A stretch of 64,000 nt of DNA from an uncultured delta proteobacterium (GTDB lineage: Bacteria > Desulfobacterota > Desulfomonilia > Desulfomonilales > Desulfomonilaceae). The stretch spans positions 864,001 to 928,000 of the forward strand of contig CAWBKB010000001.1 in the NCBI GenBank assembly GCA_963789265.1, written 5' to 3'. The position numbers were made by a program, and so were the translations under genes. How positions within the stretch are numbered: the first letter of the stretch is position 1; the number at the start of each line of letters is the position of its first letter. This document shows positions 930-59,862 of the stretch, piece by piece. The notes under the pieces are model-generated. The model did not search any database. It was not told the DNA's origin and worked only from the letters and a program-made list of their open reading frames with translations.

Positions 930-971
930 CAGCTTTTCATCGAACGAGTAGGTTTTGTGGGGGGCGATGCC

Positions 972-3427: not shown

Positions 3428-3505
3428 ACAAGCTATCAGGCTAGCTCTTTGGCGCGAATTCTCGTGTTTGACGGCGATAGAAACGGCTGGTAGCGGGACA
3501 CGACG

Positions 3506-4063: not shown

Positions 4064-4094
4064 AGAAAGACCAGACTATAGGTCGCAATAAACT

Positions 4095-5802: not shown

Positions 5803-6131
5803 TTCTTTTTCCTCCGGTTTGAATATAGGGAAATGGGGGGAGAATCCGGCCCTCCCTATTATTGAATCTCTTAGTATAACATCCGACCGTCAGAGTTCAA
5901 CTAGGTTCTCGGAGTCGCGCAAACTTTTTTTCGTCTTGAACCGGAAATTTCGATCGCTCACAATCGCCGGCTAAGGGCAAATTCGGCTAAGTAAATAATA
6001 ATCCTAATGGTTGATTGACAAACATAACCGTAACCTGGCCCTCGCTTGAAAGCTAAATCAACGCCACAGAGCATGGGTCAATTATGGCGCTATCCAATGC
6101 CCTCGGCTACGCGGCACCAAACATCCTGAAC

Positions 6132-6293
6132 TTATCTTCCCGCCTGCCTGTCGGCCTTTTCTCTACGCCTGAAGGCTCTTTTCAATTGCCAATGCTTGAA
6201 GCCGATGTACGCCCGCTCCCAAAATACCAGGGCGCCGGCAATGCTGAGAATTGCCACCAGGAGGAATCGGTAGGGCCATTCGAGTTCTTGCAC
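6132..6293 (-). CDS. Small single-TM hypothetical protein
   Basis: GGAGG RBS before GTG; one hydrophobic helix and a basic C-tail. Confidence 0.5.
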   Translation of the reverse strand: MQELEWPYRFLLVAILSIAGALVFWERAYIGFKHWQLKRAFRRREKADRQAGR

Positions 6294-6531
6294 CTTGCCT
6301 CCCCACAAGAATCGTTGGTGTATTAAGGAATATCGAAACAGCAACTCCTCGTCAAGTCTAGATTTACAAAGCTCAAGCTCGCAATTGCCGGATTGGCGGC
6401 TTCCACGAACGCTCTCCACATGTCAAAATCAATTAATTTCATTATAATGTGAAAAGCCCTTTCCGGTCGGTTAAAAAAAATGAGCCTTCCCAAGTTTGCG
6501 ATTTTCCGGACAATCTCTTGAGGTCAGTTGC

Positions 6532-7752
6532 GTGAAACGACGTATCTACATGGACAATGCTGCCACCACCTTCCCCAAGCCCCAAGGTGTAACGGAGGCG
6601 ATGGTTCATTTCATGCAAAACATAGGGGCCAACCCGGGCAGATCAAAACACGATCTCTCCCTGGAGGCTTCGACAATTGTCGACGGGACGCGCAAAAAAC
6701 TGGCGTTACTCTTTAATGTGCCCGATCCCAAACGTATCGTCTTTACACTCAACGCAACCGAATCCTTGAATACGGTTATCTACGGCGTTCTGAAGCCAGG
6801 CGACCACGTTGTGATTACCCAGATGGAACACAATTCCGTGATTCGACCAGTGCGACATCTGGAAGAGATCGGCGTGGTCACGGTCTCTGTCGCTCCTTGC
6901 AACAAGATGGGGGAACTGGATATTGAGTCCTTGAGGGAATTGATGCGGGACAACACCGCTCTTGTGGCACTTAATCATGCTTCAAACGTGTGCGGAACGA
7001 TCCAGAATATTGCGGCGGTGAGAGAGGCTGTCGGACAAGTCCCTCTGCTCCTTGATGCGGCCCAGACCGCGGGAGCGCTTCCCATAGACGTTCAGGCGAT
7101 GGGCGTCGATTTTCTCGCATTCACGGGGCACAAAGGACTGTACGGACCCCAAGGAACAGGCGGACTATACGTGAGAGAAGAGTTGGCCATCCGACCGCTC
7201 AAGCGCGGCGGAACCGGCAGTGTTTCCGATCGGGAACTACAGCCTGATTTCTTTCCGGATGCGCTTGAAAGCGGGACTCGGAACAATGTAGGAATTGCCG
7301 GTCTCGGCGCCAGTCTGGACTTCATACTGCGGACAGGTGTGAATACTATTCGACGGCACGAGATGGATCTTCTTCAAAATTTTATCGACGGTCTCATCGA
7401 CGTGCCGGGCATCACCCTCTACGGCCCGCTTGAACCTGAAACGCAGATGCCCATCCTATCAGTCACTTTCGACAGGGCGCTACCGGATGGGCTTAGCGTC
7501 TCGTTCGGCGGTTGCGGGGGCAGGTCCATCCCCGCGACGTTCGAGACGCTTCATCCTGAGGAAGCGGGAACTCTACTGCAGGATCGCTATGAAATATCCG
7601 TACGTGTGGGTCTTCACTGCGCTCCGTTGGCTCACAAAGCGCTGGGAACATTTCCTGACGGAACCGTGCGCTTCAGCCTCGGTTACTTCAACACGCTTGA
7701 AGAGGTGGAGCTTGCAGTGGAAGCGATCAAGCGAATAGCCGAAAAGGGATAA
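6532..7752 (+). CDS. Class V PLP aminotransferase / cysteine desulfurase-family protein
   Basis: YMDNAATT, DAAQTAG, TGHKGLYGPQG (PLP Lys), RGGTGS, RVGLHCAP (catalytic Cys). Confidence 0.9.
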   Translation: MKRRIYMDNAATTFPKPQGVTEAMVHFMQNIGANPGRSKHDLSLEASTIVDGTRKKLALLFNVPDPKRIVFTLNATESLNTVIYGVLKPGDHVVITQMEHNSVIRPVRHLEEIGVVTVSVAPCNKMGELDIESLRELMRDNTALVALNHASNVCGTIQNIAAVREAVGQVPLLLDAAQTAGALPIDVQAMGVDFLAFTGHKGLYGPQGTGGLYVREELAIRPLKRGGTGSVSDRELQPDFFPDALESGTRNNVGIAGLGASLDFILRTGVNTIRRHEMDLLQNFIDGLIDVPGITLYGPLEPETQMPILSVTFDRALPDGLSVSFGGCGGRSIPATFETLHPEEAGTLLQDRYEISVRVGLHCAPLAHKALGTFPDGTVRFSLGYFNTLEEVELAVEAIKRIAEKG

Positions 7753-7762
7753 GAGCGGACCA

Positions 7763-8560
7763 TTATGAATTCTCCTTCTCGGAACCCCTTCTCCCCGTGT
7801 GGGTTTCCGCTCCCAAGCGGTTGATCATGGTCGCCGCGTACGCTGCCCCAAAGCCGTTATCGATATTGACAACCACCACTCCGGGGGCACAGGAGTTCAA
7901 CATGCCGAGAAGCGCAGCGATTCCACCGAAAGACGCTCCATAACCGATCGAAGTTGGTACAGCTATGACGGGCCTGTCAACCAGGCCGCCGATCACGCTC
8001 GGCAGCGCGCCTTCCATTCCCGCTACGGCAATGATGACCGATGCCGAGCGCAGCTTCTCGCTGTTCGTCAGCAGCCTGTGAATCCCTGCCACCCCCACGT
8101 CGCAGAGTGTTTCCACACGGTTCCCCAGCGCGTACGCCGTGACTTTGGCTTCCTCAGCCACGGGTATATCGGAACTACCCGCGCATACGACCAACACTGT
8201 TCCTTTGCCCGTTATCTCGATCGGTTTGCGACAGTACAAGAGAGTCCTGGCCTCAGCATTATGCTGGAGTCCGGAAACTTCTCCGAGAATCTTACCGGCC
8301 TTGACCTCATCGACCCGGGTTATCAACACAGTGTCTTGCCGAGCCTGAAGACTTTTGAAAATTCCGATAATCTGCTCGGCAGTCTTCCCCTCCCCGAAGA
8401 TCACCTCCGGAAAACCAAGGCGCACCGCGCGGTGATGATCCACAGCCGCGAAGCCGAGGTCTTCGGTCTGAAGATCCTGGAAGATGCGGCTCGCCTCTTC
8501 GGGGGACAAGCGGCCTTCCTTGACCTCATCGAGTATGCTCATTAATCGCAGTCGATCCAA
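7763..8560 (-). CDS. larB: Nickel pincer cofactor biosynthesis protein LarB (PurE-like)
   Basis: DHHRAVRLGFPEVIFGEGK, DVGVAGIHRL, AGMEGALPSV, VPTSIGYG, NIDNGFGA. Confidence 0.93.
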   Translation of the reverse strand: MDRLRLMSILDEVKEGRLSPEEASRIFQDLQTEDLGFAAVDHHRAVRLGFPEVIFGEGKTAEQIIGIFKSLQARQDTVLITRVDEVKAGKILGEVSGLQHNAEARTLLYCRKPIEITGKGTVLVVCAGSSDIPVAEEAKVTAYALGNRVETLCDVGVAGIHRLLTNSEKLRSASVIIAVAGMEGALPSVIGGLVDRPVIAVPTSIGYGASFGGIAALLGMLNSCAPGVVVVNIDNGFGAAYAATMINRLGAETHTGRRGSEKENS

Positions 8561-8913
8561 ACTCTTTCTCTCCGTATATCGGCCTAGGGCCGTGAATGCG
8601 CGGCCGGCCGGGGGCCGAATTTGCAGGGTCGGGGGAATTCGATATTTTCTTGTCGGGAATAGGCCCGGATAGCAAAAACTGGGAGAGCGGATAAAGGAAA
8701 GCCCCGGAAAGGAGGATGAGAACCGGGGCTTCGCATGGGGAAAAGGTATGTTGAGCAGCGGGCTACGCCACCCGCTGGGTTGCATGCGTTAAAACATGAT
8801 TCCGGATGGTTGTCAAGTATATTTAAAGTTATTTCTATAAATGAACTCATTTTATGAAACCGTAATATAATATTATTTATGTAACCATAAGTAATATAAA
8901 AGGTATCCATTGA

Positions 8914-9360
8914 TTACGTCAATGACCGGATCACGTCCACCTTGCCCACAATCCCCACCAACCTCCCCCCCTCGATCACCGGCAGGGTATACAACTTCCT
9001 TTCGCTCATGATTCGCGCCACTTCGGACAAGTCAGTGTCCGGCTCGACGGAGACCGCGGGTCGGGAATAGATGTCTCCGACGGTGGTCGCTGCGAGTCGT
9101 TTGAATTCCTTCTGTAGCCGCCACGGGTTTTCGAGGGGTATCACCGAGTCCAGGATCACAAACACGGTAGGTATGTGCAGGGGTCTGTTCTGGTCGACCA
9201 AATCAGATTCGCACACCACACCCAGGACCTTTCCTTTGTCGTCGACCACCGGGGCTCCGTTGATATTGTTTTCAGCCAGAATGTTGGCCAGTTCACGTAG
9301 CGAGGTCTCCGGGGTCACGGTGATTACATCGCGGGTCATAACGTCTGCTACCTTTGGCAT
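8914..9360 (-). CDS. CBS domain pair protein
   Basis: VADVMTRDV...GAPVVD...[23 protein letters not shown]. Confidence 0.9.
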
Positions 9361-34018: not shown

Positions 34019-35188
34019 TTACATCGATCTGCCTGGAACTCCTATGTTCCTGGCTATGACGATCCTCTGAACCTCCGAGGTGCCTTCGCCTATGTCGAGA
34101 AGCTTCTGGTTTCGGTAGTGTCTTTCAACAGCGTAGTCCTTCATGAGGCCGTATCCGCCATGAAGCTGCACAGCGTGGTTCGCGGCCCTGTAGTATGTTT
34201 CCGAGCAGACAAGCTTCGCCATGGCGCTGTATTTGGGATTCAATCTGTTATTATCTGCCAGCCAGCACGCCTTGTAAAGGAGCAGACGGGCCATTTCTAT
34301 TTCCGTGGCCATGTCCGCCAGCTTGAATGCATTTGCCTGGAAAGATCCTATGGGCCTGCCAAACTGCGTCCTTTTCCTGGAATAGTCGAGAGCCAACTCG
34401 AACGCCCCTTGGGCTCCGCCCAATCCCATAGCCGCAATAGATAGGCGGCCGCCGTCGAGGGTCTTGAGCATCTGATGGAAACCCTCACCTCGGCCCCCTA
34501 GAAGATTATCCTTTGGGACTCGGCAGTCTTGGAAAGTAAGCTGGCCTGTGTTGGAAGATCTCCAGCACATTTTGTCATGCATAGTTTCCGCACTAAATCC
34601 GCGGGTGCCGTTTTCGACCAGAATACAGCTCACTTCAGGCTTTCCCTCATCCGAGCGGTCCGTGACGCACTGAACCACGCAAATCGCGCTGATGTCAGTG
34701 GTCGAATTTGTAATGAAGATCTTGCTGCCATTAATTACCCATTCGTTTCCGTCGAGAACCGCACTGGTCCTGGAAGCGCCGGCATCCGAACCGGCATCGG
34801 GCTCGGTCAGACCGAATGAGGCCAGGATCTTCCCTTTACACAGGTCCGGAAGCCACTTCCTCTTTTGCTCTTCGGTGCCGAAATAATAGATGGGAGCGAT
34901 CCCCAGGGAATTACCTGCGGCTACAGTAGCTGCCTGAGACCCATCAATGCGCGCGATCTCTTCCACCATTATTATGTAGTTGAGGTAACCAACGTCGCTA
35001 CCGCCGTATTCTTCGGAAACAAAAGGGCCGAAGAAATCGAGTTCGCCCATCTTGCGGGTAAGGTCGTATGAAAATTCTTCTTTGTCGTCCAGTTCCTGGG
35101 CTACAGGCGCAATCTCCTTCTCGGCGAAGTCTCTAACGACCTTCCTGGTAAGCTCCGCATCTTTGGGAAGATCAAAGTTCAAGGACAT
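34019..35188 (-). CDS. Acyl-CoA dehydrogenase
   Basis: FGLTEPDAGSDA, NGSKIFITN, LDGGRLSIAA, RTQFG, QLHGGYG, IGEGTSEVQR. Confidence 0.95.
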   Translation of the reverse strand: MSLNFDLPKDAELTRKVVRDFAEKEIAPVAQELDDKEEFSYDLTRKMGELDFFGPFVSEEYGGSDVGYLNYIIMVEEIARIDGSQAATVAAGNSLGIAPIYYFGTEEQKRKWLPDLCKGKILASFGLTEPDAGSDAGASRTSAVLDGNEWVINGSKIFITNSTTDISAICVVQCVTDRSDEGKPEVSCILVENGTRGFSAETMHDKMCWRSSNTGQLTFQDCRVPKDNLLGGRGEGFHQMLKTLDGGRLSIAAMGLGGAQGAFELALDYSRKRTQFGRPIGSFQANAFKLADMATEIEMARLLLYKACWLADNNRLNPKYSAMAKLVCSETYYRAANHAVQLHGGYGLMKDYAVERHYRNQKLLDIGEGTSEVQRIVIARNIGVPGRSM

Positions 35189-35519
35189 GCTTTAACCCCC
35201 GTTCACTCTGGAAGATACTATTCAGATTATGAAAGGTCCCGGAAGTCCGGCGACCAATCCGGAGTCATGCTACTACATGTCAACCGGGTTTGTCTGCTGA
35301 AAAGCAGTGTTCCGGAGTCGGAATCCATCGGGCATACGGACAACTGTGGATAAACTTTATTCTCAGTGTCGTGGAAAATGCCGGGCCTGCAATGTGCCCT
35401 ACGCGACCGGGTCATTTTCTGTTTCCGCGATCGCTTTTGAGAATCATCCTAGCCGGTTTTGATCTGCCGGAACTAATGAATACAGTATTTGTAACAAGGA
35501 GTGATAGAGGAGGAGCAAC

Positions 35520-36173
35520 ATGAATCTTCAAGAACAGCTCAACGTCATAAAGAGACGTTTTGAGTCCAGCGTGCCGCCTGCAACAGTAGCCATCATGCAC
35601 CACGCCACCGAGGAGATTCGGAACTCCGGCATTTTGGATCGCACATTGAAAGTTGGACAAAAAGCGCCTGAATTCGCTCTCCCCAACGTAAATGGCGAGA
35701 TAATCGCTTCAAAGGAATTGATTGCAAGGGGCCCGCTGGTGGCGGCTTTCTATAGAGGTGTGTGGTGACCGTATTGCAATGCGGAGCTGGAAGCTCTGGA
35801 AAACGTAAACCGAACCATTGCAGCCGAGGGAGCCACACTGGTGGCAATTTCACCCCAACTGCCGAAGTATTCCGGGATCACGGCCAGGAAACACAACCTC
35901 ACTTTCGACCTGCTGAGCGATGTCGGTAACAAGGTGGCCCGGAAGTTCGGACTAGTCTTTGAACTTCCTGATTATCTGCGCCGGCTTTATCTCGAACTCG
36001 GGACGGATCTGAAAAGGTACAACGGCGACGATTCCTGGACCCTGCCCATGCCGGGCACTTTTGTAATTGAAGAGAATTCGATAATCCGGCATGCGGAGGC
36101 GGACCCTGACTACACCATTCGGCCGGATCCAGAACACATCCTGGAAGTGCTCAAGAGGATCAGATTCCATTAG
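35520..36173 (+). CDS. Peroxiredoxin-like (AhpC/TSA) selenoprotein with UxxC motif
   Basis: ORFs 35520-35768 and 35841-36173 share one frame; FYRGVW-TGA(35766)-PYCNAEL places TGA at the first Cys of the WCPYC motif; SECIS-like hairpin follows. Confidence 0.88.
35769..35798 (+). promoter_or_regulatory. Putative bacterial SECIS element
   Basis: Stem CGGAGC/GCTCTG with 5-nt loop TGGAA (G at loop position 2) starting 19 nt after the in-frame TGA. Confidence 0.65.
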
Positions 36174-36282
36174 CAGAGCATTCGACTGGCGTAAGACGTG
36201 GTGAATTTTTCATTTCTCGGGGTGAAGCGCGCCTTCGGTGCGGTGATGGGAGTTGTGAGAATCGTGGGATTGAGGCGCCCTC

Positions 36283-36360
36283 AAAGTCCCCATTTTCTAA
36301 AGGGGGATTTTCAGGGAGTTATACAAAATCCCCCTAACCCCCATTTAAGAAGGGGGAGCC
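36283..36360. repeat. Family A hairpin repeat, reverse orientation
   Basis: AAAGTCCCC...AAAGGGGGATTTTCA...AAAATCCCCC matches the reverse complement of the 10115 and 48575 copies. Confidence 0.6.
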
Positions 36361-36737
36361 CGCATCGGTCGCGATAACCTGATCCACCGAATTTAGCACC
36401 AGCGATGCGGTTCTCACGCGAAGCGTAGGGTCACCGCATCCTACAAGAAATTGGTACCTCCGGCCGATAGCGGTTGGTCCCCCAGCCTCAGGTGCCCACA
36501 CGAGTACCGTTCTCCATGCGCCAATTCGAAAAATTATTGACCATCCTGGTTGTAACTGTTACCTTTTTAAATCAAGGGACTCTACTTAAGCTAAATTGCT
36601 TTCTCCGCGTTCTCTGCGATCTCCGCGGTGAACCATTACTGTAACCCATAGTGCGGCCAATTTTGCGAGGGTCCGGCTTCGCCGTTTGAATGATCGTTAA
36701 TGTAATTGTGTTTTTTTATGTATGAGGTTTCCGCTCG

Positions 36738-38168
36738 ATGACCGCGGAAAGAGTTGCTTACACCGAAGAGCGTCGTCAACACTGGGATGCCGTTGCCCTA
36801 CAAATGGATCGCGGACCGGGATGGGGCCAATTCTACCATCAACGAGTGACGAAGATCTTTCAGACCGTTGTTCTCCCAGGACAGCGAATAATTGAATTTG
36901 GTTGTGCATACGCGGATCTTCTGGCGTCACTTGAAACTTCTGTGGGGGTTGGTGCAGACTTTTCCGCTGAAATGATTAAGTTCGCTTCGGCACGTCACCC
37001 CGAACTGCAATTTGTGAACGCGGACGTGCATGAATTGGATGTCAAAGAGACCTTCGATGTAATCATCTTATCTGATTTGGTGAACGATCTGTGGGATGTT
37101 CAACAAGTGTTTCAAACCGCTGCCACGCTTGCGGAACCACACACCAGGCTGATCATAAATACCTACAGCCGACTCTGGGAGCTTCCGTTGGCAATGACCG
37201 AGCGGCTACACCTGGCTCGGCCGACCTTGTATCAGAATTGGCTTACAGTAGAAGACATAACAAACCTTCTTAAGCTGACAAATTTTCAAGTCATCAGGCA
37301 TTGGAGCGAGATCCTCTGTCCCCTTAACATACCGATTCTTCAACCTTTCCTTAATAGGTTCCTGGTCAAGATGTGGCCGTTCAGACTAGGAGGTCTATCG
37401 AATTTTGTGATGGCACGCCCCGTTCCTAAGGATAACCCAGGCAAGAAAAAGCCGCTTGTTTCTGTCATTGTTCCGGCCAGGAACGAAGCCGGAAACATCG
37501 ATCGGATCTTCGAGCGGGTCCCCGAAATGGGCCAAGAGACGGAGCTTGTCTTCGTGGAAGGTCATTCGACCGACAACACGTACGAGGCAATTGAAAAGGC
37601 CATGAATTCCGGTTCGCACCGCAGGTGCAAACTGTTGAAACAGAGCGGCGCGGGAAAAGGAGATGCCGTGAGGTTAGGATTCGCTCAAGCCGAGGGCGAG
37701 ATCCTCATGATTCTCGACGCAGATCTGACCGTTCCTCCTGAAGACTTGCCCCGCTTTTATGAAGCGCTGGTCTCGGGAAGAGGTGAATTCATAAACGGGG
37801 TGAGGCTTGTCTATCCCATGGAAGACCGGGCAATGCGTTTTCCCAATTTGGTTGGCAACAAGCTCTTCAGCCTTGCTTTTCGCTGGACCCTGGGCCAACC
37901 TGTTAAAGATACTCTTTGCGGGACCAAGGTTCTGTGGAAAGCCCAGTACGAGATCATCGCCGCCAATCGGTCATACTTCGGATACTCGGACCCGTTTGGA
38001 GATTTTGATCTTATACTTGGAGCCGCGCGGTTGAACCTCCATATACTCGATTTGCCCATACGGTATCGCGAACGTCGGTACGGGGCAACGAACATCCAAC
38101 GCTGGCGACATGGATTGTTGCTGCTTAGGATGGCATTGGTGTCTGCACTACGACTTAAATTTGTGTGA
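36738..38168 (+). CDS. SAM-methyltransferase-like / GT2 glycosyltransferase fusion (polyprenol-phosphate sugar synthase-like C-terminal half)
   Basis: N-half IEFGC...GADFS...ADVH; C-half VSVIVPARNEAGNI, EGHSTD, GKGDAVRLG, ILDADL (DxD), DTLCGTK. Confidence 0.88.
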   Translation: MTAERVAYTEERRQHWDAVALQMDRGPGWGQFYHQRVTKIFQTVVLPGQRIIEFGCAYADLLASLETSVGVGADFSAEMIKFASARHPELQFVNADVHELDVKETFDVIILSDLVNDLWDVQQVFQTAATLAEPHTRLIINTYSRLWELPLAMTERLHLARPTLYQNWLTVEDITNLLKLTNFQVIRHWSEILCPLNIPILQPFLNRFLVKMWPFRLGGLSNFVMARPVPKDNPGKKKPLVSVIVPARNEAGNIDRIFERVPEMGQETELVFVEGHSTDNTYEAIEKAMNSGSHRRCKLLKQSGAGKGDAVRLGFAQAEGEILMILDADLTVPPEDLPRFYEALVSGRGEFINGVRLVYPMEDRAMRFPNLVGNKLFSLAFRWTLGQPVKDTLCGTKVLWKAQYEIIAANRSYFGYSDPFGDFDLILGAARLNLHILDLPIRYRERRYGATNIQRWRHGLLLLRMALVSALRLKFV

Positions 38169-38186
38169 GGCTGTCGGGTCAAGGCC

Positions 38187-38973
38187 ATGATAAAAGAACT
38201 GCTTACCCATCCGCTCGCACGAGGACTGGACCTGGACGATCCCACAACAACTGAAGTGCGTCGTCGGATAATACAGACAAAAGGATATTCTGGGGCAAAT
38301 CTATCGCGACTGGTACAGGGCGGTCCTGGCGGCCTTGCCTCGGACAGATGGCCCAGTGTTGGAATTGGGTTCCGGCGCGGGATTCCTCAGGGATTTGTTT
38401 CCCGATCTGATAACGTCGGATATTCTTCGCATTAACGACTTGTCTCTTGTGCTGGACGGTACCGAGATGCCATTCGCTGCCGGTTCGCTCCGAGCAATCG
38501 TTATGATAGATGTCCTGCACCACATTTGCCGGCCCAGGCATTTCATCAGAGAAGCGGCCCGTTGTGTGAAGCCCTGTGGAAGGCTGGTGATGATTGAACC
38601 CTGGGTCACTAACTGGTCAAGGCTCGTGTATTCGCGTCTCCACCACGAACCCTTTGATCCGGAATCCGGAGAGTGGGAGTTCCGGGCGAAAGGGCCTTTG
38701 TCGGGAGCTAACGGGGCCCTCCCGTGGATAATTTTCCGGCGGGATCGGTCGCAGTTCGCGGCAGAATTTCCTCAATGGCAAGTTACGGATATCAAACCAC
38801 AAATGCCGATCAGTTATCTCCTGTCCGGAGGAATCTCGTTGAGGGGATTTGCACCGGCGAGAACTTTCAAGGCGATCAAGCGTATCGAAGGCATCTTGGA
38901 GCCGTGGATGGACAAATTGGCCATGTTCGCTCAAATGACATTGGAACGGCTCGACGTTGAAATTGACCAATAG
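38187..38973 (+). pseudogene. Class I SAM-dependent methyltransferase, split by a +1 frameshift near 38288
   Basis: Removing one base joins IIQTKG to LGQIYRDWYRAV...VLELGSGAG...DVLHH...MIEP. Confidence 0.75.
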
Positions 38974-38974
38974 T

Positions 38975-39175
38975 CCACCGCGGAGAACGCAGAGATCGCG
39001 GAGAATTTTGGTTTCGATGCGTGTCTATGCGATGCAGCACGGCAAATTTTAGCCAGTGGCAGGGAAAGAAATTCAAGATTGACTATACGCTCCGGCGACC
39101 CACATGACGCTGAATAAGATATCTTTTTTCTCTGCGTTCTCGGTGCATCCCGCGACTCGCGGGACGGTGAATCAT
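38975..39175. repeat. CCGCGGAGAACGCAGAG-type repeat pair (family C)
   Basis: Inverted pair here; related copies at 36601-36637 and 46277-46345, the latter also sharing TGCGATGCAGCA. Confidence 0.55.
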
Positions 39176-42100
39176 GATTGCCCTATGGATCGTCACGAAA
39201 TTGAAAATGGTGGGGAAGGAGAATTGCAACGTGAATAATCCCGCTGAATTACAGGATCCTCGTTTCGTAGAGATCTCTGGAGGCCGGCCAGGCACCCTGC
39301 GGCCCCTTTTTTCGATTCTCGCACTTTGTCTGATTTTCCTGGCATTTCTCGCTTTCGCTTTCGCTTTGCAGCACAAGGGCTTTAATTCAGCGATGGTATA
39401 TGACGGCGCTGCTCTGATTCACAACAACGCGGCCAAGTTCGCCGAACACGATCCCGGAAAAATCATGAGGCTGGTCCCGGTAAGGCCACTGTTTATGCTG
39501 AGCCTCTACTACAATTATGTATTGGCAGGAATGGAACCGTACTATTTTCGGATCGGGAATATGCTCGTAGTCGCTGCCGGCGGCCTGGTTCTGGTGTTGC
39601 TGTGTATGATCGTTTTCGAAATTCCAGCTCTGGGGTTGCCGGGGACGAGGTTATACAAACAGGGTGTGAGTGTTTTCCTCGGTTTGCTGTTTGTCGCCCA
39701 TCCCTTACAGAACTTTGTCGTTCTGTACGAATGGCAGCGAGAAGCCAGCATGGCTTACTTTTTTTACTTTTCGACCCTTGCCATGTATCTGGCAGTGCGT
39801 TCAGGCCGCTTCCGCCATACGGTCCCGGCTTACATCCTCACGGCTATACTCTTTCTGGTCGGACTATTGAGCAAGGAGAATCTGGCCACAGTCCCCGTGG
39901 TATTCGGTTTGGCAGAAGTAACACTGTTTCGCCAAACTCTTAGGGACTTGCTCAAGAGGGCGCTGGTAGTAGCCTCGATAACGGTCCCTTCCATAATCGC
40001 TTACATATTGGCAACCGGGTATTTGCACGGGCAAGCAGGCGCACACACCTGGGGAATTGCCAGCCGTCTTTCCGATTATTACAAATTCAGCGGGCAGACC
40101 TTTCCGCAAGTGGCGCTAACCGAAGCTCGGATCATCTTTTCCTATCTTTCGATGATTATAGCTCCCTTCTTATTCCCACCGGAATTTATCAGGGCGGAAA
40201 CAATTTCTACCTCGCTGCTGCATCCTCCTGCCACTTTAGCCGCCTGCGCGGCAATAGTTGCTTTGGTCGGCATTAGCACAGTGTGGTTACGAAAAAGACC
40301 GCTGATTGCGTTCGGCATTCTCTTCTATCTTATAGTCTTAATCCCTGAATGTCTCTTGATCCCGCAATACCTGTTCTTCGGTTACAGGGCGATCCTGCCG
40401 ATGGCGGGGGTACTGCTTATAGTCGGGGCAATAACACTCCCTCTCCTCGAATGGGGCAGATCGAATTTGTCCGCGACGACCTTCAGATCCGCTTTGGCCC
40501 TGGCCTCAATTATTCCGGTCGCCTGCCTTGGCGCGGTAACATTTCCTCAAGCTAAGAGCTGGAGCGCTCTCCAGTTTTGGAAAAGCCCGGCGTCTCAGTT
40601 GCCGAACTATTCCGAGAACGTCGAAACCGTCCCTTTTCTGGACATCACTGTTAATTACATGTCCAACCTGCTTGTATCAAAGAATTATTCCGAAGCGATA
40701 AACCTCTTCGGAAAAGTCAGCCAGACTAATATCCAGCCTGAAATGTCTTCACCAAAGCCGGGGGCCACGGTTTACAAACCTGAGCAAATCAACCAGGCCG
40801 CGGCGAAGTTCGTAGAAAAATTTAAAGGAAGACCTCATAGAACTTCTGCGGCTCTACTCGCGCTCGGCGGGGCACTCACATCCACGGGGAATTTGTCCGA
40901 GGCGATGACGGCATACAGGAAAGCCATCCAGGTCGATCCTTACAATAAGAATGCCCTTATGAATCTTGCCGGCCTTTTGTCTCAGACGGGAAAACCGCAG
41001 GAGGCCGTACATCAGTACATTAAAGTCATCTGCTTGGACCCTAAATCCGTGCCGGCGCATTACGGGCTGGGTCTCGCTTTGCAAAGGGCAGGCCGCCGCG
41101 ACGACGCTATAAAGCTGTACCGCAGAGCGATAGAGATTGATCGTCGCTCGGTGATCGCCTACAACCTGCTGGGGCAAGCGCTTAAAGAATCCGGGAAGTT
41201 GCACGAGGCGATACGACAATACAGAAAAGCCATCCGGATCGATCCCAAGTCTGCTGATTCTCACCACAATCTTGGAATGGCGCTGGCCAACTCCGGCAAC
41301 GCTTCCGAAGCGATAAAAGAATATCGCAAGGCCCTTGAGATTAACCCCAAGCTACAGAGTGCACATTGTAACCTGGGCCTTGCTCTGGAATACGCGGGGA
41401 ACATTTCCGAGGCGATGAAGGAGTACACCAGAGCGATCGAGATAGACACCCACTACGGTATTGCACACAATCTTTTGGGCGGAGCGCTCCGTAAATCAGG
41501 GAAGTTGCAGGAGGCAATAGATGAGTTCACAAAGGCGGTAGAGCTTGATCCAGGTTCTCCCATTTTGCACTGCAATCTTGGCATGGCGTTGGCTAATGTC
41601 GGAAGAGGCACTTATGCGATAAAGGAATACCGAAAGGCCCTCGGCATTAATCCTCGGATGGTGGCCGCGCATATCAACCTCGGGCTGGCACTGGAGCACT
41701 CCGGTCGGCTTGCAGAGGCCATGAAGGAATACGAGAGGACCATAGCGATCTCTCCCCGTTTTGCCATAGCGTACAAGGTTCTTGGCAGCGCCCTGGACAG
41801 AGCAGGAAATCACACGCTGGCGCTGGAGTACCTTAAAGTCGCGGCCAAACTGAACCCGAGCTTGCTTAACGGTGATTATCGTGTGGCTCACGACTTGTTG
41901 AAGAATGGGAAGGTAGCTGCTGCGATAGTAAGCTTCCAAAGAATTGTGGAACAGAACCCCGACCTTGCCGCGGCCCAGGCAAATTTGGGTCTCGCTCTGC
42001 TGAGAGACGGGCGAACCAGCGAGGCTATAACGGCCCTCGAAAAGGCCGTGGCGCTCAACAAGGACAATGCTGATACTTTCTACACACTTGGGCTTGCATT

Positions 42101-42263
42101 TGCAAAAGTTAACAGAATCTCTGAAGCGATAGATAGTCTTAAGGCTGCGCTGGTCGTAAACCCTCGTCACACAAATGCGAAGCAATATCTCGAACATTTG
42201 ATGAGCCGAAACAGGCAGGCCGAAAGGCCCGTGGTCTCGCCGGGCTCACAGGCGATCAATTGA
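39174..42263 (+). CDS. Multi-pass membrane protein with TMTC-like GT-C domain and long C-terminal TPR array
   Basis: About 11-13 hydrophobic segments with motifs VRPLFMLS, LLFVAHP...QR, LLSKE, YRAILP; about 13 34-aa TPR units (AHCNLGLAL...EA...Y.KA..I.P); start codon uncertain. Confidence 0.85.
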   Translation: MIALWIVTKLKMVGKENCNVNNPAELQDPRFVEISGGRPGTLRPLFSILALCLIFLAFLAFAFALQHKGFNSAMVYDGAALIHNNAAKFAEHDPGKIMRLVPVRPLFMLSLYYNYVLAGMEPYYFRIGNMLVVAAGGLVLVLLCMIVFEIPALGLPGTRLYKQGVSVFLGLLFVAHPLQNFVVLYEWQREASMAYFFYFSTLAMYLAVRSGRFRHTVPAYILTAILFLVGLLSKENLATVPVVFGLAEVTLFRQTLRDLLKRALVVASITVPSIIAYILATGYLHGQAGAHTWGIASRLSDYYKFSGQTFPQVALTEARIIFSYLSMIIAPFLFPPEFIRAETISTSLLHPPATLAACAAIVALVGISTVWLRKRPLIAFGILFYLIVLIPECLLIPQYLFFGYRAILPMAGVLLIVGAITLPLLEWGRSNLSATTFRSALALASIIPVACLGAVTFPQAKSWSALQFWKSPASQLPNYSENVETVPFLDITVNYMSNLLVSKNYSEAINLFGKVSQTNIQPEMSSPKPGATVYKPEQINQAAAKFVEKFKGRPHRTSAALLALGGALTSTGNLSEAMTAYRKAIQVDPYNKNALMNLAGLLSQTGKPQEAVHQYIKVICLDPKSVPAHYGLGLALQRAGRRDDAIKLYRRAIEIDRRSVIAYNLLGQALKESGKLHEAIRQYRKAIRIDPKSADSHHNLGMALANSGNASEAIKEYRKALEINPKLQSAHCNLGLALEYAGNISEAMKEYTRAIEIDTHYGIAHNLLGGALRKSGKLQEAIDEFTKAVELDPGSPILHCNLGMALANVGRGTYAIKEYRKALGINPRMVAAHINLGLALEHSGRLAEAMKEYERTIAISPRFAIAYKVLGSALDRAGNHTLALEYLKVAAKLNPSLLNGDYRVAHDLLKNGKVAAAIVSFQRIVEQNPDLAAAQANLGLALLRDGRTSEAITALEKAVALNKDNADTFYTLGLAFAKVNRISEAIDSLKAALVVNPRHTNAKQYLEHLMSRNRQAERPVVSPGSQAIN

Positions 42264-42322
42264 CCGGGTCCTCGATCGGCGCTATGGCTCTGGTAGCTGT
42301 CTATAACATACAGTAATTTTGC

Positions 42323-42352
42323 TTGACACTTCATGTTAGCTTACCCTAATAT
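42323..42352 (+). promoter_or_regulatory. Putative sigma70 promoter for the Thr-rich protein gene
   Basis: TTGACA-18 nt-TAATAT in an AT-rich intergenic region. Confidence 0.4.
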
Positions 42353-42717
42353 GAATTAAGTTGAGTTTTAGGAAGATATTATGCTTGGACTGTACTCAGA
42401 TTTGGTGCGGTCGCGAAAATTAATGTTGCACATTTGCTGGTTTCGGACAGATCGTAACGACAAAATCATGGTAAAGGGAGAGTGAGTGTAATGGACACTC
42501 TCAACCGAGGCTGGTTCGGCCGGACGGTTCATTAATCGGGTCCAAAACTATCGCTTCTTTACGCTCGTTGCCTTATGTCGCAACCGAGAAGTAGCGGGAA
42601 GTGGGGTTTGGGATATCCGGGTATCGTGACAATTTGGAGTAGCCGAAATCTGAACCGAGGGTTCGGACTGGGTTCCATCTTCATTGTTTGCATCCTCCCG
42701 TTCGGGGACGAATCTTT

Positions 42718-44442
42718 ATGGAGGGCCGCGAAATGATAAGACGTGAGTATGGTTGGGGAATGGGGATTCTCTTAGCAGTGGCTTTAGTCAGTTGTTTTAG
42801 TTTGCCGCGATCTTGGGCAGCGGACCCAAAGGGGGAGGCGCTTCTTACCCAAGAAGTGGGTAAAATCGAGCGAACTCAAGGTGCAACCATGGTAAGGCGG
42901 GCCGGCGAAACCGAATTCGGCCTTCTCACCAGTGGGGACCCCGTATTCGTTCAGGACACTATTGGTACAGATCCAACTGACAAGAATGCCAAGATCTGGT
43001 GGCGACACCCTGCACCCGCGAAGATGGACGCTTCACTCGGTCCCGACTCGTTGCTCGGTTTTGTTGCCTACGGCGAGGAGGGGCCGGTTTCGTCTTTCGT
43101 CGGCGCTGTGTCGAAGGGGATGGTCCGGTTCATAAGGAAACTCCCGGCAACAGATCCTGCCTCCTCTTTCACGATCATGACCCCGACGGCTCTCGTTCAG
43201 GTTGTCCCCGCTGATCGAGCCGCTGACTACGTAGTGTCGGTGATAGACGACAATCACACCGCCGTCACCGTGATTTGGGGAGTAGTTGTGGTAAAAAACG
43301 TATCTGACCAGCTCACCCAGGAACGACAGTTAACTTCGTGCCAAATGGTTATCGTCGAAAAAGATAAAGACCCTTCCGAGGTCATGGGAGTTGGGTCTGA
43401 CACCTTAAGAGAATTAATTCAGCTTACGACGATCCCCCATACGTTGCCTACGGATGTCCCGTCTTGCGAACCGCCGGCCCAACCTGTGCCCCCGGAAGAG
43501 TACATCCCGCCTGAATTTCCCGAGGTGATTGAGGGCTATCCCGGAGAAGAATACGGGCCCCCAGGCTTTATTCCCGTCCCGGTTCCATTTCCTCCTCACA
43601 CTTGGGACACGACCGATACGACGGATACAACTATAACGGAGACTACCGGCACGCTCGACACCACTCCGACTATATTTACTCCGATAACTCTGATAACTCC
43701 GATAACTACTATTGACACCACCAACACTCTATTGACCCTTATCACGCCGCTCACATTCGACACGATAAATACGATGTACACCATCCCGACGCTGCTCACC
43801 CTTGATACGATAAACACTATTCCCACCGGCTTAACGTTCAACACTCTCTTCACCTTGCCGACTATCTATACGTTCGATACCGCCATCACGCAGATTCCCA
43901 CTGTCCTGACTCTTGACACTTTCATGACGCTCAATACTCTTGTCACGTTCGACACTTCCAACACGCAAATCCCCACACTGATCACGTTCAACACAATCTA
44001 TACGAGTATCCCAACATTCTTCACGCAAGGTCCGATCGACACGACCTATACAGGCCCGATCGGGCCAGTGACGCTAGACACCACGACAACTGTTCCCACA
44101 GTTTCTACGCTGACTACAATACCCACGGTTAGTACCGCCACGACATTATCTACTTCAATATCCACAGTCTATACAGGCTATCCCACTTTTTCCACCGGGG
44201 GAGGGACGAGTGGCACCGGCCAGCCGTTCATCCAGACCTTCCACACTTATTCAACAGGCGGAGGTGTCAGCACCATGCATACTTTCCAAACCTTTTCGAC
44301 TGGAAAAGGTGAGGGCAACACCGGCCGTCGTTACTATCGTCCCAAGTCTAAGGGAGAAAGCGGACAGAACTTGATGCAGGAATTTAACAAACAGAACCAG
44401 GAGCAACCGCAGATGCAGAAACATGAATTTCACCGACGGTAG
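42718..44442 (+). CDS. Exported protein: FecR-like beta domain, Pro/Glu linker, (Thr-X-X)n repeat region
   Basis: Signal peptide ending SWA; GDPVFVQDTIGT...KGMVRF...FTIMTPTA...VTVIWGVVVVKN resembles FecR-like domains; T-X-X periodicity from 43600 to 44306. Confidence 0.8.
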   Translation: MEGREMIRREYGWGMGILLAVALVSCFSLPRSWAADPKGEALLTQEVGKIERTQGATMVRRAGETEFGLLTSGDPVFVQDTIGTDPTDKNAKIWWRHPAPAKMDASLGPDSLLGFVAYGEEGPVSSFVGAVSKGMVRFIRKLPATDPASSFTIMTPTALVQVVPADRAADYVVSVIDDNHTAVTVIWGVVVVKNVSDQLTQERQLTSCQMVIVEKDKDPSEVMGVGSDTLRELIQLTTIPHTLPTDVPSCEPPAQPVPPEEYIPPEFPEVIEGYPGEEYGPPGFIPVPVPFPPHTWDTTDTTDTTITETTGTLDTTPTIFTPITLITPITTIDTTNTLLTLITPLTFDTINTMYTIPTLLTLDTINTIPTGLTFNTLFTLPTIYTFDTAITQIPTVLTLDTFMTLNTLVTFDTSNTQIPTLITFNTIYTSIPTFFTQGPIDTTYTGPIGPVTLDTTTTVPTVSTLTTIPTVSTATTLSTSISTVYTGYPTFSTGGGTSGTGQPFIQTFHTYSTGGGVSTMHTFQTFSTGKGEGNTGRRYYRPKSKGESGQNLMQEFNKQNQEQPQMQKHEFHRR

Positions 44443-44577
44443 CGGGTCTGACGAACCGGGGAAACCACGAACGATAAAGAGGTCTGAGACCTCGTCAGAT
44501 TGGGGCAGTCACACCAACCCGGAAGGCGCAGATTTTCCGGAAGAATGACTGCCCTATCTTTTTCGGGTGACCTATCC

Positions 44578-45729
44578 TCAGTACCGCAATATGGCCGCGA
44601 CGCGCCTGTCATCAGGCACATTTTCCGGCTCTACGGCATAAACCGATCCGCCGTTGAGCAAGGTCCGGATGGCTGCGAAATCGAGAAGATCTTCGTCGCC
44701 GGGTTCGGCTGTATCATGCAAACGCACCGAGTCGGTATCGCCGTCGAAAGATCCCCATCGTTGCACGCCGAGCGCCACAAACAACACCTCCACTCGGCCG
44801 TGATAAGCGCCCCTAACGATATCTTCGAGGTCCTTGGATGTTCTGCCAGTTCCTGCCAACCTGTTGTACAAGCCGACCGCATCCTGTTGCGCCTTCTGGA
44901 AGTAGGGCTCAATGATGCTCCAGGCTTGCTCATGTAACTGCTGGGCAGTAAGGCCTTCAGGATTCCCGGGAATGCCTTGATCCAACAAATTCCCATAAGT
45001 GTTGGCTTCTTTGTAGATAGGGAATAGATAATCGACCGCGGCCAGCACCAAGGGGGCGTGCTCGTTCCCTATCAATTCGTGTAGACCTTTGTCTACTTGC
45101 CGAAGGAACTGAAGTATGTTCTCTTTGGGATCATCCGTCCCGCCACCGTGGCCATGAAAGGCAGGGGCTCCCTTTCCGGCCCCGCCTTGGGGGAAGGCCG
45201 GCCACTGGATCTGTTTTTCAGGAGTGTCCGGCCGCAAGGCTTCTTCTAAACTTCGAGGCACTCCATTTAGATCTACGTCATCGACGCTGTAACGGGTTCC
45301 TTGCAGAAGTCTCACCTGGTTTTGACTCAGGGCCAAAATGTAAAACCTCCCATCACCGCTAAGGAGAGGAAGCATCGGCTTCAAATGGAACCGATCTGAA
45401 ACAACCACTAACTCTTCGAATCGGATTGGAAGGTTATATTGTAAGTAGCCTCCAGAGGAAAAGAACACTGCCAGTCCATCGCTCTGATGTGACCAGAACA
45501 GATTGTCCTGAATCAGTGCTTGCGCCGGCTGGAGCAGGTCCTTTGCCTGAGGAGCGCGAAGTCCGTTCCGGATCAACTTCTCCTCGGCTACCTTGAGTAA
45601 GTTCTTGAAACGGATGCGATCCTGTTGGGTCTCCGGTCCGACCCTGTGAGAAGGCAGAAAAACCGACACGCAAGGACTTTCGCGTCTCTCCATCAACGTC
45701 CTTAATTCGCTCGTGCTCAAAAGGCTCAT
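44578..45729 (-). CDS. Bacterial archaeo-eukaryotic release factor family protein (baeRF3/baeRF7-like)
   Basis: PCVSVFLP...DRIRFKNLL, FHLKPMLP, FHGHG, PLVLAA, GRVEVL, AAILRY C-terminus. Confidence 0.75.
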   Translation of the reverse strand: MSLLSTSELRTLMERRESPCVSVFLPSHRVGPETQQDRIRFKNLLKVAEEKLIRNGLRAPQAKDLLQPAQALIQDNLFWSHQSDGLAVFFSSGGYLQYNLPIRFEELVVVSDRFHLKPMLPLLSGDGRFYILALSQNQVRLLQGTRYSVDDVDLNGVPRSLEEALRPDTPEKQIQWPAFPQGGAGKGAPAFHGHGGGTDDPKENILQFLRQVDKGLHELIGNEHAPLVLAAVDYLFPIYKEANTYGNLLDQGIPGNPEGLTAQQLHEQAWSIIEPYFQKAQQDAVGLYNRLAGTGRTSKDLEDIVRGAYHGRVEVLFVALGVQRWGSFDGDTDSVRLHDTAEPGDEDLLDFAAIRTLLNGGSVYAVEPENVPDDRRVAAILRY

Positions 45730-45841
45730 GCTTCATGCCCCTTTCTTGGATGGAAGACCAGTCAATTCCAATTGCCCGAGTTGCGCCATCTGTGGCTCTC
45801 GTGTGGGCACCTGTGGGCTCCTAATGAAGGCACGTCCCAGA

Positions 45842-46114
45842 CTATGAGCCCGTACCTTCAATCGAGCCCTTGACCGTTTCCCCCGCGGCTTCTCCCTCAG
45901 GACACGAGGAGCACAATTCACCTTCGGGGCCCGGTCGCACCAGACCCCGCCGCACCGCCTCGCGGTTCGCTATCAAAACGCTCATTTCCTCGTCATATTT
46001 TGCTTTCTGTTCCGGACCGGCCTCTTCCATGGCAGCTTCAAATTGAGCTATTTGAGCGTCACACTGCTCTACCACGGATTCCACTCTACGTTCGTATTCT
46101 CCTTCGTTTTCCAA
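45842..46114 (-). CDS. Small acidic coiled-coil hypothetical protein
   Basis: Helical Glu-rich ORF with CSSC, upstream of the baeRF gene on the same strand; start uncertain. Confidence 0.5.
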   Translation of the reverse strand: MENEGEYERRVESVVEQCDAQIAQFEAAMEEAGPEQKAKYDEEMSVLIANREAVRRGLVRPGPEGELCSSCPEGEAAGETVKGSIEGTGS

Positions 46115-58488: not shown

Positions 58489-59862
58489 ATGCTCCATGAC
58501 GCTTTTATAAGCCACGCATCCGAAGATAAGGATGCGTTCGTCCGCCCCCTGGCGAACGCATTGCGTGCCCAAAATGTTGCGGTGTGGTTTGACGAATTTG
58601 AGCTAAAGGTTGGTAGCTCCCTTCGCCGATCCATAGATTTGGGTCTATCGAGATCCCGATTTGGTATTCTGATTCTAAGCAAGGCATTCTTCGGAAGACG
58701 TTGGCCAGAATGGGAACTGGACGGCTTGGTGCAGCGTCAGATGTCGGCATCTGAACCAGTCCTTCTTCCGATCTGGCTGGATGTGACCTACGAAGATGTT
58801 CTAGGGTTTTCGCCTTCCTTGGCCGATAAGTATGCCTTGCGTGCAGAACAGGGACTTGATCGAATCGTACCTCAACTGCTGGAAGTGATAAAACCTCAGG
58901 GATCTTCTCTCGTTGTGGCTCGAGACCGTCTGGTTGAACTGGGCTATGATCCGCCTGTGGTCACGGATGACTGGTGGCACAATGCTATAGAGAAATGCGC
59001 TTCCCATCCTATGGATGAACACTGGGGGTTCCCGTTACCATCCGGAGGTCAAACCGCACAAGAAAGAGGAGAAAGAATAGCCTGGGCTGCTTTACAGTTG
59101 CATTGGCAGAAGAATTCCGCGTTTGAGAGGATGACGCAGATAACACGCCCCGGCGAGGTACACGATTTTATTGGGCGTATGCCAGGCTTAGCTGAAGCCT
59201 GCTTCGAGTACCCCGACTATTTAGCCTCCTATGTTCCTCAGCTCACACTGCCTGGATTTGGTGGTATCTTTGAAGAAGTATTCAATAGCTGGCTTCATCA
59301 TTCCCGAATGGTGCAGGAGAAGGAAAGACAGAGCGGTTCCTCGACGGGAAGAGCTCTTACCGTGGACGGTCATGTCCCTCTTTGCGATCTTCCTATAGCC
59401 CTTCACGACCCGTCTCTTGGGAATTACCAACCGGACGTACTCGCCTGTCTTTTTGTTCAAGGCGAACTTATGGGTCCACCGGTGAAGGTCTACGATTACA
59501 TTGACTATGCCTTGTGGCTCTTGTCGCATGCCAGCAAGTGGCTGCCTGCAGGCGTCAGGGGTTTCCTTCTAACGGGAATGAAAGAATGGGCAGTATGGCC
59601 CTGGTCAGGGTACGAAAATGACTCTGACTTTCCACGCAACAATTCTACGGGTAGTCTGCAGAACGATTTGATGCGAAGCAAGGGCTACAGTACTTTCAAA
59701 CTCAGTAAGAAAGGGCGTCGAGACTTAAACAATCGGGTTGAGCACTCTATCAATATACTCCAATTACCGGAGGAGGTTTCTGTGCTCAGTGAGCTATTCC
59801 TTACCAACGGTTTTGTACAGGCTTGGTTCAGACGCCGGGGAAGGCAAAAAAGGAGCACCTGA
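58489..59862 (+). CDS. TIR-domain protein with uncharacterised ~320-aa C-terminal region
   Basis: DAFISHASEDK...VWFDEFELKVG.SL..SID.GL..SRFGILILS..FF...WPEWEL...LPIW. Confidence 0.88.
   Translation: MLHDAFISHASEDKDAFVRPLANALRAQNVAVWFDEFELKVGSSLRRSIDLGLSRSRFGILILSKAFFGRRWPEWELDGLVQRQMSASEPVLLPIWLDVTYEDVLGFSPSLADKYALRAEQGLDRIVPQLLEVIKPQGSSLVVARDRLVELGYDPPVVTDDWWHNAIEKCASHPMDEHWGFPLPSGGQTAQERGERIAWAALQLHWQKNSAFERMTQITRPGEVHDFIGRMPGLAEACFEYPDYLASYVPQLTLPGFGGIFEEVFNSWLHHSRMVQEKERQSGSSTGRALTVDGHVPLCDLPIALHDPSLGNYQPDVLACLFVQGELMGPPVKVYDYIDYALWLLSHASKWLPAGVRGFLLTGMKEWAVWPWSGYENDSDFPRNNSTGSLQNDLMRSKGYSTFKLSKKGRRDLNNRVEHSINILQLPEEVSVLSELFLTNGFVQAWFRRRGRQKRST

Follow-up and report, generated by a model that had tools for sequence, protein, structure and literature searches.

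A candidate lipid-linked-sugar O-glycosylation locus pairing a TMTC-like membrane protein with a threonine-repeat exported protein in Desulfomonilaceae

A four-gene cluster in a soil Desulfomonilaceae genome

We analyzed a 64,000-nucleotide stretch of DNA, here called the window (GenBank assembly GCA_963789265.1, contig CAWBKB010000001.1, positions 864,001 to 928,000 of the forward strand), from a soil member of the Desulfomonilaceae whose genome comprises 6.06 Mb in 9 contigs and is 95.6% complete. In a neighborhood of ordinary metabolic genes, the open reading frame (ORF) list of the window places four consecutive, co-oriented genes, g1-g2-g3-g4, on the + strand at 36738-44442, as an earlier interpretation of the same DNA made without database searches (the sequence-only reading) had described. 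These genes encode a methyltransferase-like protein fused to a family 2 glycosyltransferase (GT2), an S-adenosylmethionine (SAM) methyltransferase, a membrane protein with a tetratricopeptide-repeat (TPR) array, and an exported protein with a threonine-rich tail. We consider it reasonably probable that this locus is a periplasmic module for protein O-glycosylation from a lipid-linked sugar, in which the Thr tail of g4 would be the acceptor.

In animals, cadherins receive mannose from TMTC enzymes, whose defects cause disease; bacterial TMTC relatives are common in genomes. The portions of the literature available to us, including those of PMC7801869 and PMC8724618, describe no bacterial TMTC relative with a characterized substrate or activity, which agrees with the earlier statement that substrates of such proteins are largely undefined. 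The genes and features of the locus are as follows.

36738-38168, + strand: g1, 476 residues, methyltransferase-like and GT2 fusion
38187-38973, + strand: g2, class-I SAM methyltransferase, in two overlapping ORFs (38187-38435, 82 residues, and 38335-38973, 212 residues)
39174-42263, + strand: g3, 1029 residues, membrane domain followed by a TPR array
39174-40760, + strand: membrane domain of g3, predicted GT-C (class A) fold, TMTC-like
40761-42263, + strand: C-terminal TPR domain of g3, matched by Pfam TPR models
42323-42352, + strand: promoter-like site TTGACA-18-TAATAT in the gap between g3 and g4
42733-44442, + strand: g4, 569 residues from the likely start ATG at 42733, identical to P0097
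42688-44442, + strand: longer ORF of g4, 584 residues from a TTG
42733-42819, + strand: putative signal peptide of g4, read by eye, running from MIRREYGW to SLPRSWA and followed by AD
42850-43452, + strand: FecR/PupR-like all-beta domain of g4, predicted from a structure model and fold match
43600-44307, + strand: Thr-x-x region of g4, ~236 residues, candidate O-glycosylation acceptor

The membrane domain of g3 is predicted to adopt a GT-C fold

Pfam matches of g3 were confined to TPR models (TPR_1 in 10 stretches), and 13 TPR units could be counted by eye, in keeping with the multi-pass protein with about 13 TPRs first described. Residues 1-539 matched no Pfam model at E ≤ 10, PF08409 (TMTC_DUF1736) and PMT included, and a sequence search with the membrane domain returned no chain of the PDB at E ≤ 10. 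An AlphaFold2 model of this domain, built from a 46-sequence alignment, had a mean predicted local distance difference test score (pLDDT) of 89.5 and aligned in VIA-align with AglB 3waj (Z 21.2, root-mean-square deviation [rmsd] 4.8, 331 residues aligned), yeast STT3 (Z ~20.8), ArnT 5f15 (Z 19.7, rmsd 4.6, 349 aligned), Pmt4 9i5k (Z 19.2, rmsd 4.5, 342 aligned), Pmt1-Pmt2 6p25_B (Z 19.1, rmsd 4.5, 355 aligned), and PglB (Z about 18; 17.6), with these structural matches covering model residues ~45-500. The first 35 Foldseek matches listed were all GT-C-fold proteins (glycosyltransferases and GPI-transamidase chain U), at E-values that were all weaker than 1e-3. On the basis of the VIA-align Z-scores and the uniform identity of the Foldseek matches, the modeled membrane domain can be assigned confidently to the GT-C (class A) glycosyltransferase fold, and Z-scores of 19-21 to AglB/STT3, ArnT, and Pmt proteins bear out the GT-C domain proposed in the sequence-only reading.

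PF08409 scored above its cut-off in 6 of the 201 genomes sampled from the phylum and nowhere in the window's genome, where its best E-value was 0.24, at other sites. A hidden Markov model (HMM) of 22 close g3 relatives, all at least 41% identical, nevertheless matched 7 of the 9 ORFs taken from PF08409 loci (E 1.5e-35 to 2.4e-21) over most of the membrane domain, and a wider g3 HMM matched 8 of the 9 (4e-85 to 6.5e-38); the ninth, the longest ORF of locus L081, is probably the wrong gene. The motifs RPL, LFVAHP, and LLSKE, which the sequence-only reading had noticed, lie at residues 104, 172, and 231; alignments of 46, 22, and 27 sequences show them to be invariant or almost so. Conserved residues of g3 include D77, R104-P105, H176-P177, K234-E235, and R405, and D77, R104, K234, and R405 do not vary among the 46 sequences. 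D77, which follows the first transmembrane helix of the model (H48-69), is invariant in each of the three alignments, as are K234 and R405 (within Y404-R405); E235 is invariant in two and nearly so in the 46-sequence alignment.

The portions of PMC7801869 available to us define TMTC motifs M1 to M7, among them M1, a DD in loop EL1, M5, a DW in loop EL4, and M4, KE(T/Q)xxT (Table 4 of that paper). The K234-E235-N-L-A-T239 segment of g3 fits motif M4 (as KExxxT), and g3 retains the RP of M2 (R104-P105) and the Arg of M7 (R405). Instead of the M1 DD, g3 has a single Asp in Y76-D77-G78 (YDS or YDG in relatives); PF08409-bearing bacterial ORFs carry F-D-D. DW is not present in g3, and the nearly invariant E337-F338 lies in the loop corresponding to that of M5, its equivalence to DW not being established. 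Homology to PF08409 proteins over the membrane domain thus supports the kinship that the sequence-only reading had claimed, but the missing PF08409 match, DD, and DW do not support a TMTC-type enzyme in the strict sense. The sequence comparisons suggest that g3 is a divergent bacterial TMTC relative rather than a strict TMTC (GT105) member, and that it may work in a TMTC-like way. Because the TMTC topology given in the available portions of PMC7801869 has 11 transmembrane segments in an N-in/C-out arrangement, the TPR domain of g3 would by analogy lie in the periplasm, where it may bind the acceptor.

g1 is a candidate lipid-sugar synthase

Five class-I methyltransferase Pfam models matched residues 46-187 of g1 (E 6e-12 to 2e-7), and its GT2 domain (PF00535, E 8.9e-23, residues 242-371, with the domain extending over 242-~462) contains the DxD motif D327-A-D329, as expected for the fusion described in the sequence-only reading. 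No transmembrane segment was evident (maximum 19-residue Kyte-Doolittle-type hydropathy, KD19, 1.32). The best sequence match in the PDB was the Pyrococcus dolichyl-phosphate-mannose (Dol-P-Man) synthase 5mlz (1.8e-13), followed by three ArnC sequences (3e-11 to 2e-10) and then GtrB 5ekp (3e-4), so that the top four matches were all Dol-P-Man synthase or ArnC. Among NCBIfam models, AglJ (3.6e-28) and Dol-P-hexose transferase (1.6e-11) scored best, and all 23 matches fell under their curated cut-offs (98.8 versus 325 bits for AglJ). Across 61 genomes sampled from the family, g1 is single-copy in 29, of which 28 also hold a g3 relative; g3 occurs without g1 in 9 and neither gene occurs in 23. 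We regard g1 as a candidate polyprenyl-phosphate sugar synthase of the DPM1/ArnC/GtrB class of GT2 enzymes, judged by its sequence neighbors. The donor-synthase role assigned to it earlier is therefore kept at the level of nearest relatives and not at that of a named NCBIfam family, and mannose as the sugar used at the window's locus found no support.

The frameshift in g2 is probably an assembly error

The 212-residue piece of g2 matched Pfam Methyltransf_11 at 1.5e-8 and contains a motif I of the form ELGSGAG, consistent with the SAM methyltransferase originally read here. In the window's assembly, a +1 frameshift splits the gene near 38288; the two halves share one frame in relatives L001, L002, and L005, from which the window departs after residue 34. 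Removing one base at 38288 joins the pieces, because 38335-38187 = 148. A contig from a soil-metagenome run spans 38194-38422 (228 nt, depth 2.9, 0 mismatches) and lacks one base at 38288, and contigs of two further runs cover only 38459-38643, outside the frameshift site. As the contig lacking this base restores the frame, the frameshift, about which the sequence-only reading had cautioned and which is real in the assembly, is probably an assembly error, a judgment drawn from one low-depth contig of a run that may be the window's own sample.

The frameshift could also be taken as a sign that the cluster is decaying in this genome and no longer functions. We consider this very improbable, since the same run contig lacks the extra base, g1, g3, and g4 are intact, and a nearby apparent break, at 35766, is explained by a conserved TGA within the frame, read as selenocysteine.

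On the downstream side of g2, a gap of 200 bp (38974-39173) separates it from g3 in the window, unlike the arrangement at locus L001, where g2 runs to 8008 and the g3 match already begins at 8001, so that the two overlap. Either a different g3 start or an insertion may account for this gap.

g4 combines a FecR-like domain with a Thr-periodic tail

The g4 protein consists of a signal-peptide-like start of 29 residues (the same N-terminus is found in P0098-P0100), a conserved domain of ~200 residues, a Pro-rich linker, and a Thr region of ~240 residues, and it matched no Pfam model, FecR at E ≤ 10 included. Each 40-residue block between residues 281 and 520 contains 10-16 Thr. Thr autocorrelation over residues 301-540 was 63 at lag 3, compared with 13 at lag 1 and 12 at lag 2; together with the signal peptide read by eye, this value accords with the extremely Thr-rich exported protein described from sequence. 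Tandem Repeats Finder detected just two 9-nt arrays, of 20-30 nt, and because DNA tandem repeats are nearly absent the periodicity lies at the protein level.

In a model of full-length g4, residues 40-240 had pLDDT values of 90-98. Foldseek matched this N-domain to 4m0h/4m0n and 6ovk_R at E ~2e-6, and VIA-align gave Z 16.5 with PupR 6ovk_R (rmsd 2.7, 140 aligned) and Z 15.3 with BDI_1681 4m0n, the next, unrelated matches having Z < 4. A protein atlas lead for g4 also points to FecR. According to the model, the N-domain of g4 is of the FecR-type periplasmic fold found in the FecR/PupR cell-surface-signaling proteins. It differs from those proteins in its lack of a Pfam FecR match, in its Thr-repeat tail, and in the absence of their cytoplasmic anti-sigma domain and transmembrane helix, the signal peptide standing at the start of the sequence. 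Because g4 opens with a signal-peptide-like segment, it is not an anti-sigma factor.

At E ≤ 1e-20 the g4 domain family was found in 4 of the 201 phylum-sample genomes, all four in the window's family, and at E ≤ 1e-5 it was found in 50 of the 61 family genomes. Behind the same FecR-like domain, most members carry Cys-rich tails with repeats of the CxCxC/CPCP type (C 8-19%). These Cys-rich-tailed loci are L055, L057-L064, L066, L067, L069-L071, L073, L074, L110, L112-L115, and L117-L129. One Cys-rich member is named 'Cys-rich repeat protein' in its source.

Most Thr-tailed g4 copies adjoin g3, and Cys-rich copies lie elsewhere

Reference genomes supplied 39 loci that contain a g3 relative. This relative is directly preceded by g1 and g2 in 13 of the 39 and directly followed by a g4-type gene in 15, of which 7 lack g1/g2; some loci contain two or three tandem g4-type copies. 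The remaining 24 loci have no g4, two of them ending before the expected g4 position, and no other Thr-rich ORF was found alongside the g3 relatives that lack g4. Every readable g4 copy adjoining g3 has a Thr-periodic tail. The repeat itself varies among groups (TLDTINTIP-like, PTRFTIPT, PTTPT, or (TG)n followed by KLPTLVPT), with regular Thr spacing kept. The g3 copies that adjoin g4 are long forms of ~1000 residues, and other paralogs have ~550-900 residues.

We then took a census of tail types among the 61 family genomes, using all g4-family rows with E ≤ 4.4e-31 (rows at 3.2e-28 and weaker were left out) and counting a locus as adjacent when a g3 match lay just upstream; 20 of the loci scored as non-adjacent were judged so by coordinate comparison only.

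Adjacent to g3, 17 loci: Thr tail in 22 of 22 rows (21 genes); Cys-rich 0; other 0; unreadable 0
Not adjacent to g3, 40 loci: Thr tail 2; Cys-rich 34; other 3; unreadable 1
Cut by contig ends, 3 loci, counted as rows: Thr tail 3; Cys-rich 1; other 0; unreadable 0

One adjacent gene, at L093, is split by a frameshift and is counted twice among the 22 rows. Adjacent Thr tails contain 21-31% T and at most 1% C, compared with 8-19% C in the non-adjacent Cys-rich tails. The pairing with T-x-x proteins anticipated in the sequence-only reading was thus observed, and the form of the g4 family that adjoins g3 is only this one. This contrast between paralogs, with the Thr-tailed form adjoining the enzyme and Cys-rich forms elsewhere, is the new element of the locus.

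In a tree of the FecR-like domain (65 rows), Thr-tailed copies form three or more well-supported clades, all inside a larger clade that is not resolved, and the Thr/Cys label requires at least three changes on this tree. An approximately unbiased (AU) test, however, does not reject a tree in which the 26 Thr-type copies form one clade (p 0.487, log-likelihood difference 0.55). Because the AU test allows a single origin next to g3, the Thr-tail counts are not independent events, and a g3-linked Thr-tailed gene may have arisen once and then been inherited, duplicated in tandem, and moved a few times. Over 11 genus codes besides that of the window, identity in the FecR-like domain has fallen to 37-50%, yet the g3-g4 pair has been retained. 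What the contrast shows is long retention of the g3-g4 pair, with a tail sequence that turned over while regular Thr was kept.

In other genera, five loci carry a fifth conserved gene immediately after g4: L006 (L006:13290-14828), L007 (L007:13517-14956), L008, L011, and L020 (L020:10629-12074). Its product of ~480 residues is multi-pass by eye and has no Pfam match, and it was not found in the window's genome.

Weighing the O-glycosylation reading

A number of these results weigh against a role of the locus in O-glycosylation of g4. For the acceptor, g3 relatives occur without g4 in the 24 loci noted above, and in three loci (L014, L024, and L027) g1-g2-g3 are present with no g4 match. Two Thr-type copies, at L072 and at L056 (the latter in the correct frame), lie away from any g3, AlphaFold gives the Thr region of g4 no structure (pLDDT below 50), and with a single clade not rejected by the AU test the 22/22 versus 2/40 contrast may represent one ancient retained linkage rather than repeated independent events. 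A gap of 470 bp lies between g3 and g4, and g4 may have its own promoter, about which the sequence-only reading had cautioned; a TTGACA-18-TAATAT site is indeed present at 42323-42352, but the count of such sites in the whole region (6, versus 7.3 ± 2.5 in shuffles) is not above chance. For the enzymes, the departures of g3 from TMTC proper (neither a Pfam match in residues 1-539 nor a PF08409 match in the genome, YDG for DD, and no DW) and the sub-cut-off NCBIfam scores of g1 count in the same direction, as do the degenerate methyltransferase motif I of g1 (EFGCAYA) and the failure of the GtrA-type flippase model PF04138, which had matches in 8 of 14 genomes in a control search, to find one in the window's 95.6%-complete genome.

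Some of this evidence would fit a Gtr/Arn-like system in which g1-g3 modify lipid A, O-antigen, another envelope glycan, or other proteins, with g4 as a bystander or partner, such as a FecR-like sensor, whose position beside them reflects regulation or history. The Z-score of g3 with ArnT (19.7) is as high as those with protein transferases, the loci without g4 imply that other acceptors exist in the g3 family, a second GT-C/TPR cluster of the genome adjoins a pilin-like gene, and the fold of the g4 N-domain is that of signaling proteins; moreover, the g3-g4 linkage may be one inherited event. Against this reading, g4 has a signal peptide at its start and no cytoplasmic anti-sigma domain. Adjacency is also restricted to the Thr-tailed form, although Cys-rich forms share the FecR-like domain, and to the distinct ~1000-residue form of g3, and the only characterized fusions of GT-C and TPR domains known to us, those of animal TMTCs, act on proteins. 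We consider this alternative unlikely.

Alternatively, the Thr-x-x tail might carry no glycan at all and serve as a structural or adhesive low-complexity region, a spacer, or a surface-binding module, with synteny reflecting phylogenetic inertia. A single clade of Thr-type copies, as the AU test permits, and separate transcription of g4, if it occurs, would both suit such an account, and the glycans of the O-glycosylation reading are themselves inferred only. Inertia fits less well with synteny kept at 37-50% N-domain identity in 11 genus codes besides the window's, or with repeats whose sequence has turned over fully while regular Thr spacing was kept. Pro/Thr-rich tails are, in addition, typical O-glycosylation sites of the GT-C mannosyltransferases of actinobacteria and fungi. 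For these reasons we judge an unglycosylated tail to be decidedly unlikely.

A proposed pathway and its relation to known systems

From the fold, homology, residue conservation, and gene linkage described above, we infer the following chemistry, sugar route, and acceptor for the O-glycosylation module. As a peripheral GT2 enzyme, g1 would take a nucleotide sugar as donor and attach its sugar to polyprenyl phosphate on the cytoplasmic side of the membrane. The sugar might be methylated by the methyltransferase-like domain of g1, by g2, or by both, which is the weakest and least supported step. A separate protein would flip the lipid-sugar over the membrane, the genome offering no GtrA-type candidate, and g3 would use it at the periplasmic side. 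There Asp77, in the first periplasmic loop, may act as the catalytic base, Lys234/Glu235 and Arg405 may hold phosphate and metal, and the 13-TPR array may hold the acceptor. The acceptor would be g4, exported by the Sec pathway, with the threonines of its ~240-residue Thr-x-x tail becoming glycosylated. The locus thus presents a compact enzyme-substrate hypothesis, backed by the contrast between Thr and Cys tails within one family.

Metazoan TMTC1-4 (CAZy GT105), the endoplasmic reticulum protein O-mannosyltransferases of cadherins, have the same arrangement as g3 of an N-terminal GT-C domain followed by C-terminal TPRs. Beyond this layout, the likeness comprises the full-length HMM homology of g3 to bacterial PF08409 proteins and the M2, M4, and M7 residues given above. 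In addition to the motif differences already described, the host here is a bacterium, so the donor would be a polyprenyl-phosphate sugar rather than Dol-P-Man, and the proposed acceptor is a disordered Thr repeat, whereas TMTC enzymes modify a folded cadherin domain.

The PMT/POMT enzymes (GT39), including the actinobacterial pair of Ppm1 and PMT, share the logic of a GT2 lipid-sugar synthase coupled to a GT-C transferase, and the PMT pathway acts on Thr/Pro-rich regions of exported proteins. The fold of g3 matches these enzymes at Z 19.1-19.2, but g3 has TPRs instead of a MIR domain, lacks a Pfam PMT match, and has its candidate substrate encoded beside it. Relative to both the Ppm1/PMT and the eukaryotic DPM1/TMTC pathways, whose logic it follows, the present locus differs in its divergent TPR-bearing enzyme, its fused methyltransferase-GT2 synthase, and its adjacent candidate substrate. 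In the Gtr system (GtrA flippase, GtrB synthase, and GtrC GT-C enzyme) and in ArnC/ArnT, GtrB and ArnC resemble g1, and ArnT has the fold predicted for g3. These systems differ in that their acceptors are glycans or lipid A and they carry no TPR domain, and GtrA (PF04138) was not found in the window's genome.

A more specific and distinctly improbable possibility is that the Thr tail of g4 forms the peptide core of a bacterial glycofibril, with a glycan added to every third residue by the TMTC-like enzyme; the sugar would be lipid-linked and possibly methylated, and the FecR-like domain would hold the fibril at the envelope. The available portions of a CryoSeek preprint (bioRxiv 10.1101/2024.12.15.627649) describe glycofibrils, TLP-4a/b, seen by cryo-EM in pond water and built of P-S/T-x-x tetrapeptides with dihydroxyproline; their source organisms are given there as unidentified, and the authors are establishing cultures of diatoms in order to investigate the fibrils. 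As far as the preprint's text is available, these fibrils resemble the g4 tail in having linear short repeats with regularly spaced Ser/Thr, the O-glycans in this comparison being those of TLP-4a/b, and differ from it in that g4 has a period of three, a bacterial host, and is known from sequence alone. In the literature on Thr-x-x repeats as available to us, nothing closer than this preprint was found, and it provides an analogy, not a match. If the glycofibril reading were true, the locus would encode a three-residue counterpart of the P-S/T-x-x glycofibrils of pond water and would provide the first defined pairing of a bacterial TMTC relative with its substrate. A tail bearing a glycan on each third residue would itself be an unusual, highly regular glycoprotein.

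Further observations in the genome and the window

The second cluster of the same genome, L087 (C7:44000-60000), contains genes at 938-2572 (-), 2874-5084 (-), 5739-6332 (-), and 7322-9355 (+). Two more membrane proteins of the GT-C/TPR-like kind are encoded there, in which YDD, HPLQ, and LSKPSA motifs can be seen by eye, along with a type IV pilin-like protein whose C-terminus is Ser/Thr-rich and a g3 paralog of 35% identity; the cluster is a candidate pilin glycosylation locus.

An Rfam search of 35000-46000 in the window gave no match. Converging on g4, the gene at 44578-45729 (-) encodes a bacterial eRF1-like protein of baeRF family 3/7 (E ~2e-49); an NCBIfam family of ribosome hibernation factors is matched as well, at a score under its cut-off. 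At 58489-59862 (+), a 457-residue protein has an N-terminal TIR domain (TIR_2, 2e-18) and is possibly defense-related.

Upstream of g1, an AhpC/TSA peroxiredoxin-like gene at 35520-36173 (+) occupies one frame with a single in-frame TGA at 35766-35768. A second frameshift could be ruled out here, as both pieces lie in one frame separated by the TGA. Read as selenocysteine, the TGA gives FYRGVW-U-PYC, a UxxC redox motif, and the same two-piece, same-frame arrangement occurs in the relative L005; by its sequence, the gene is a probable selenoprotein.

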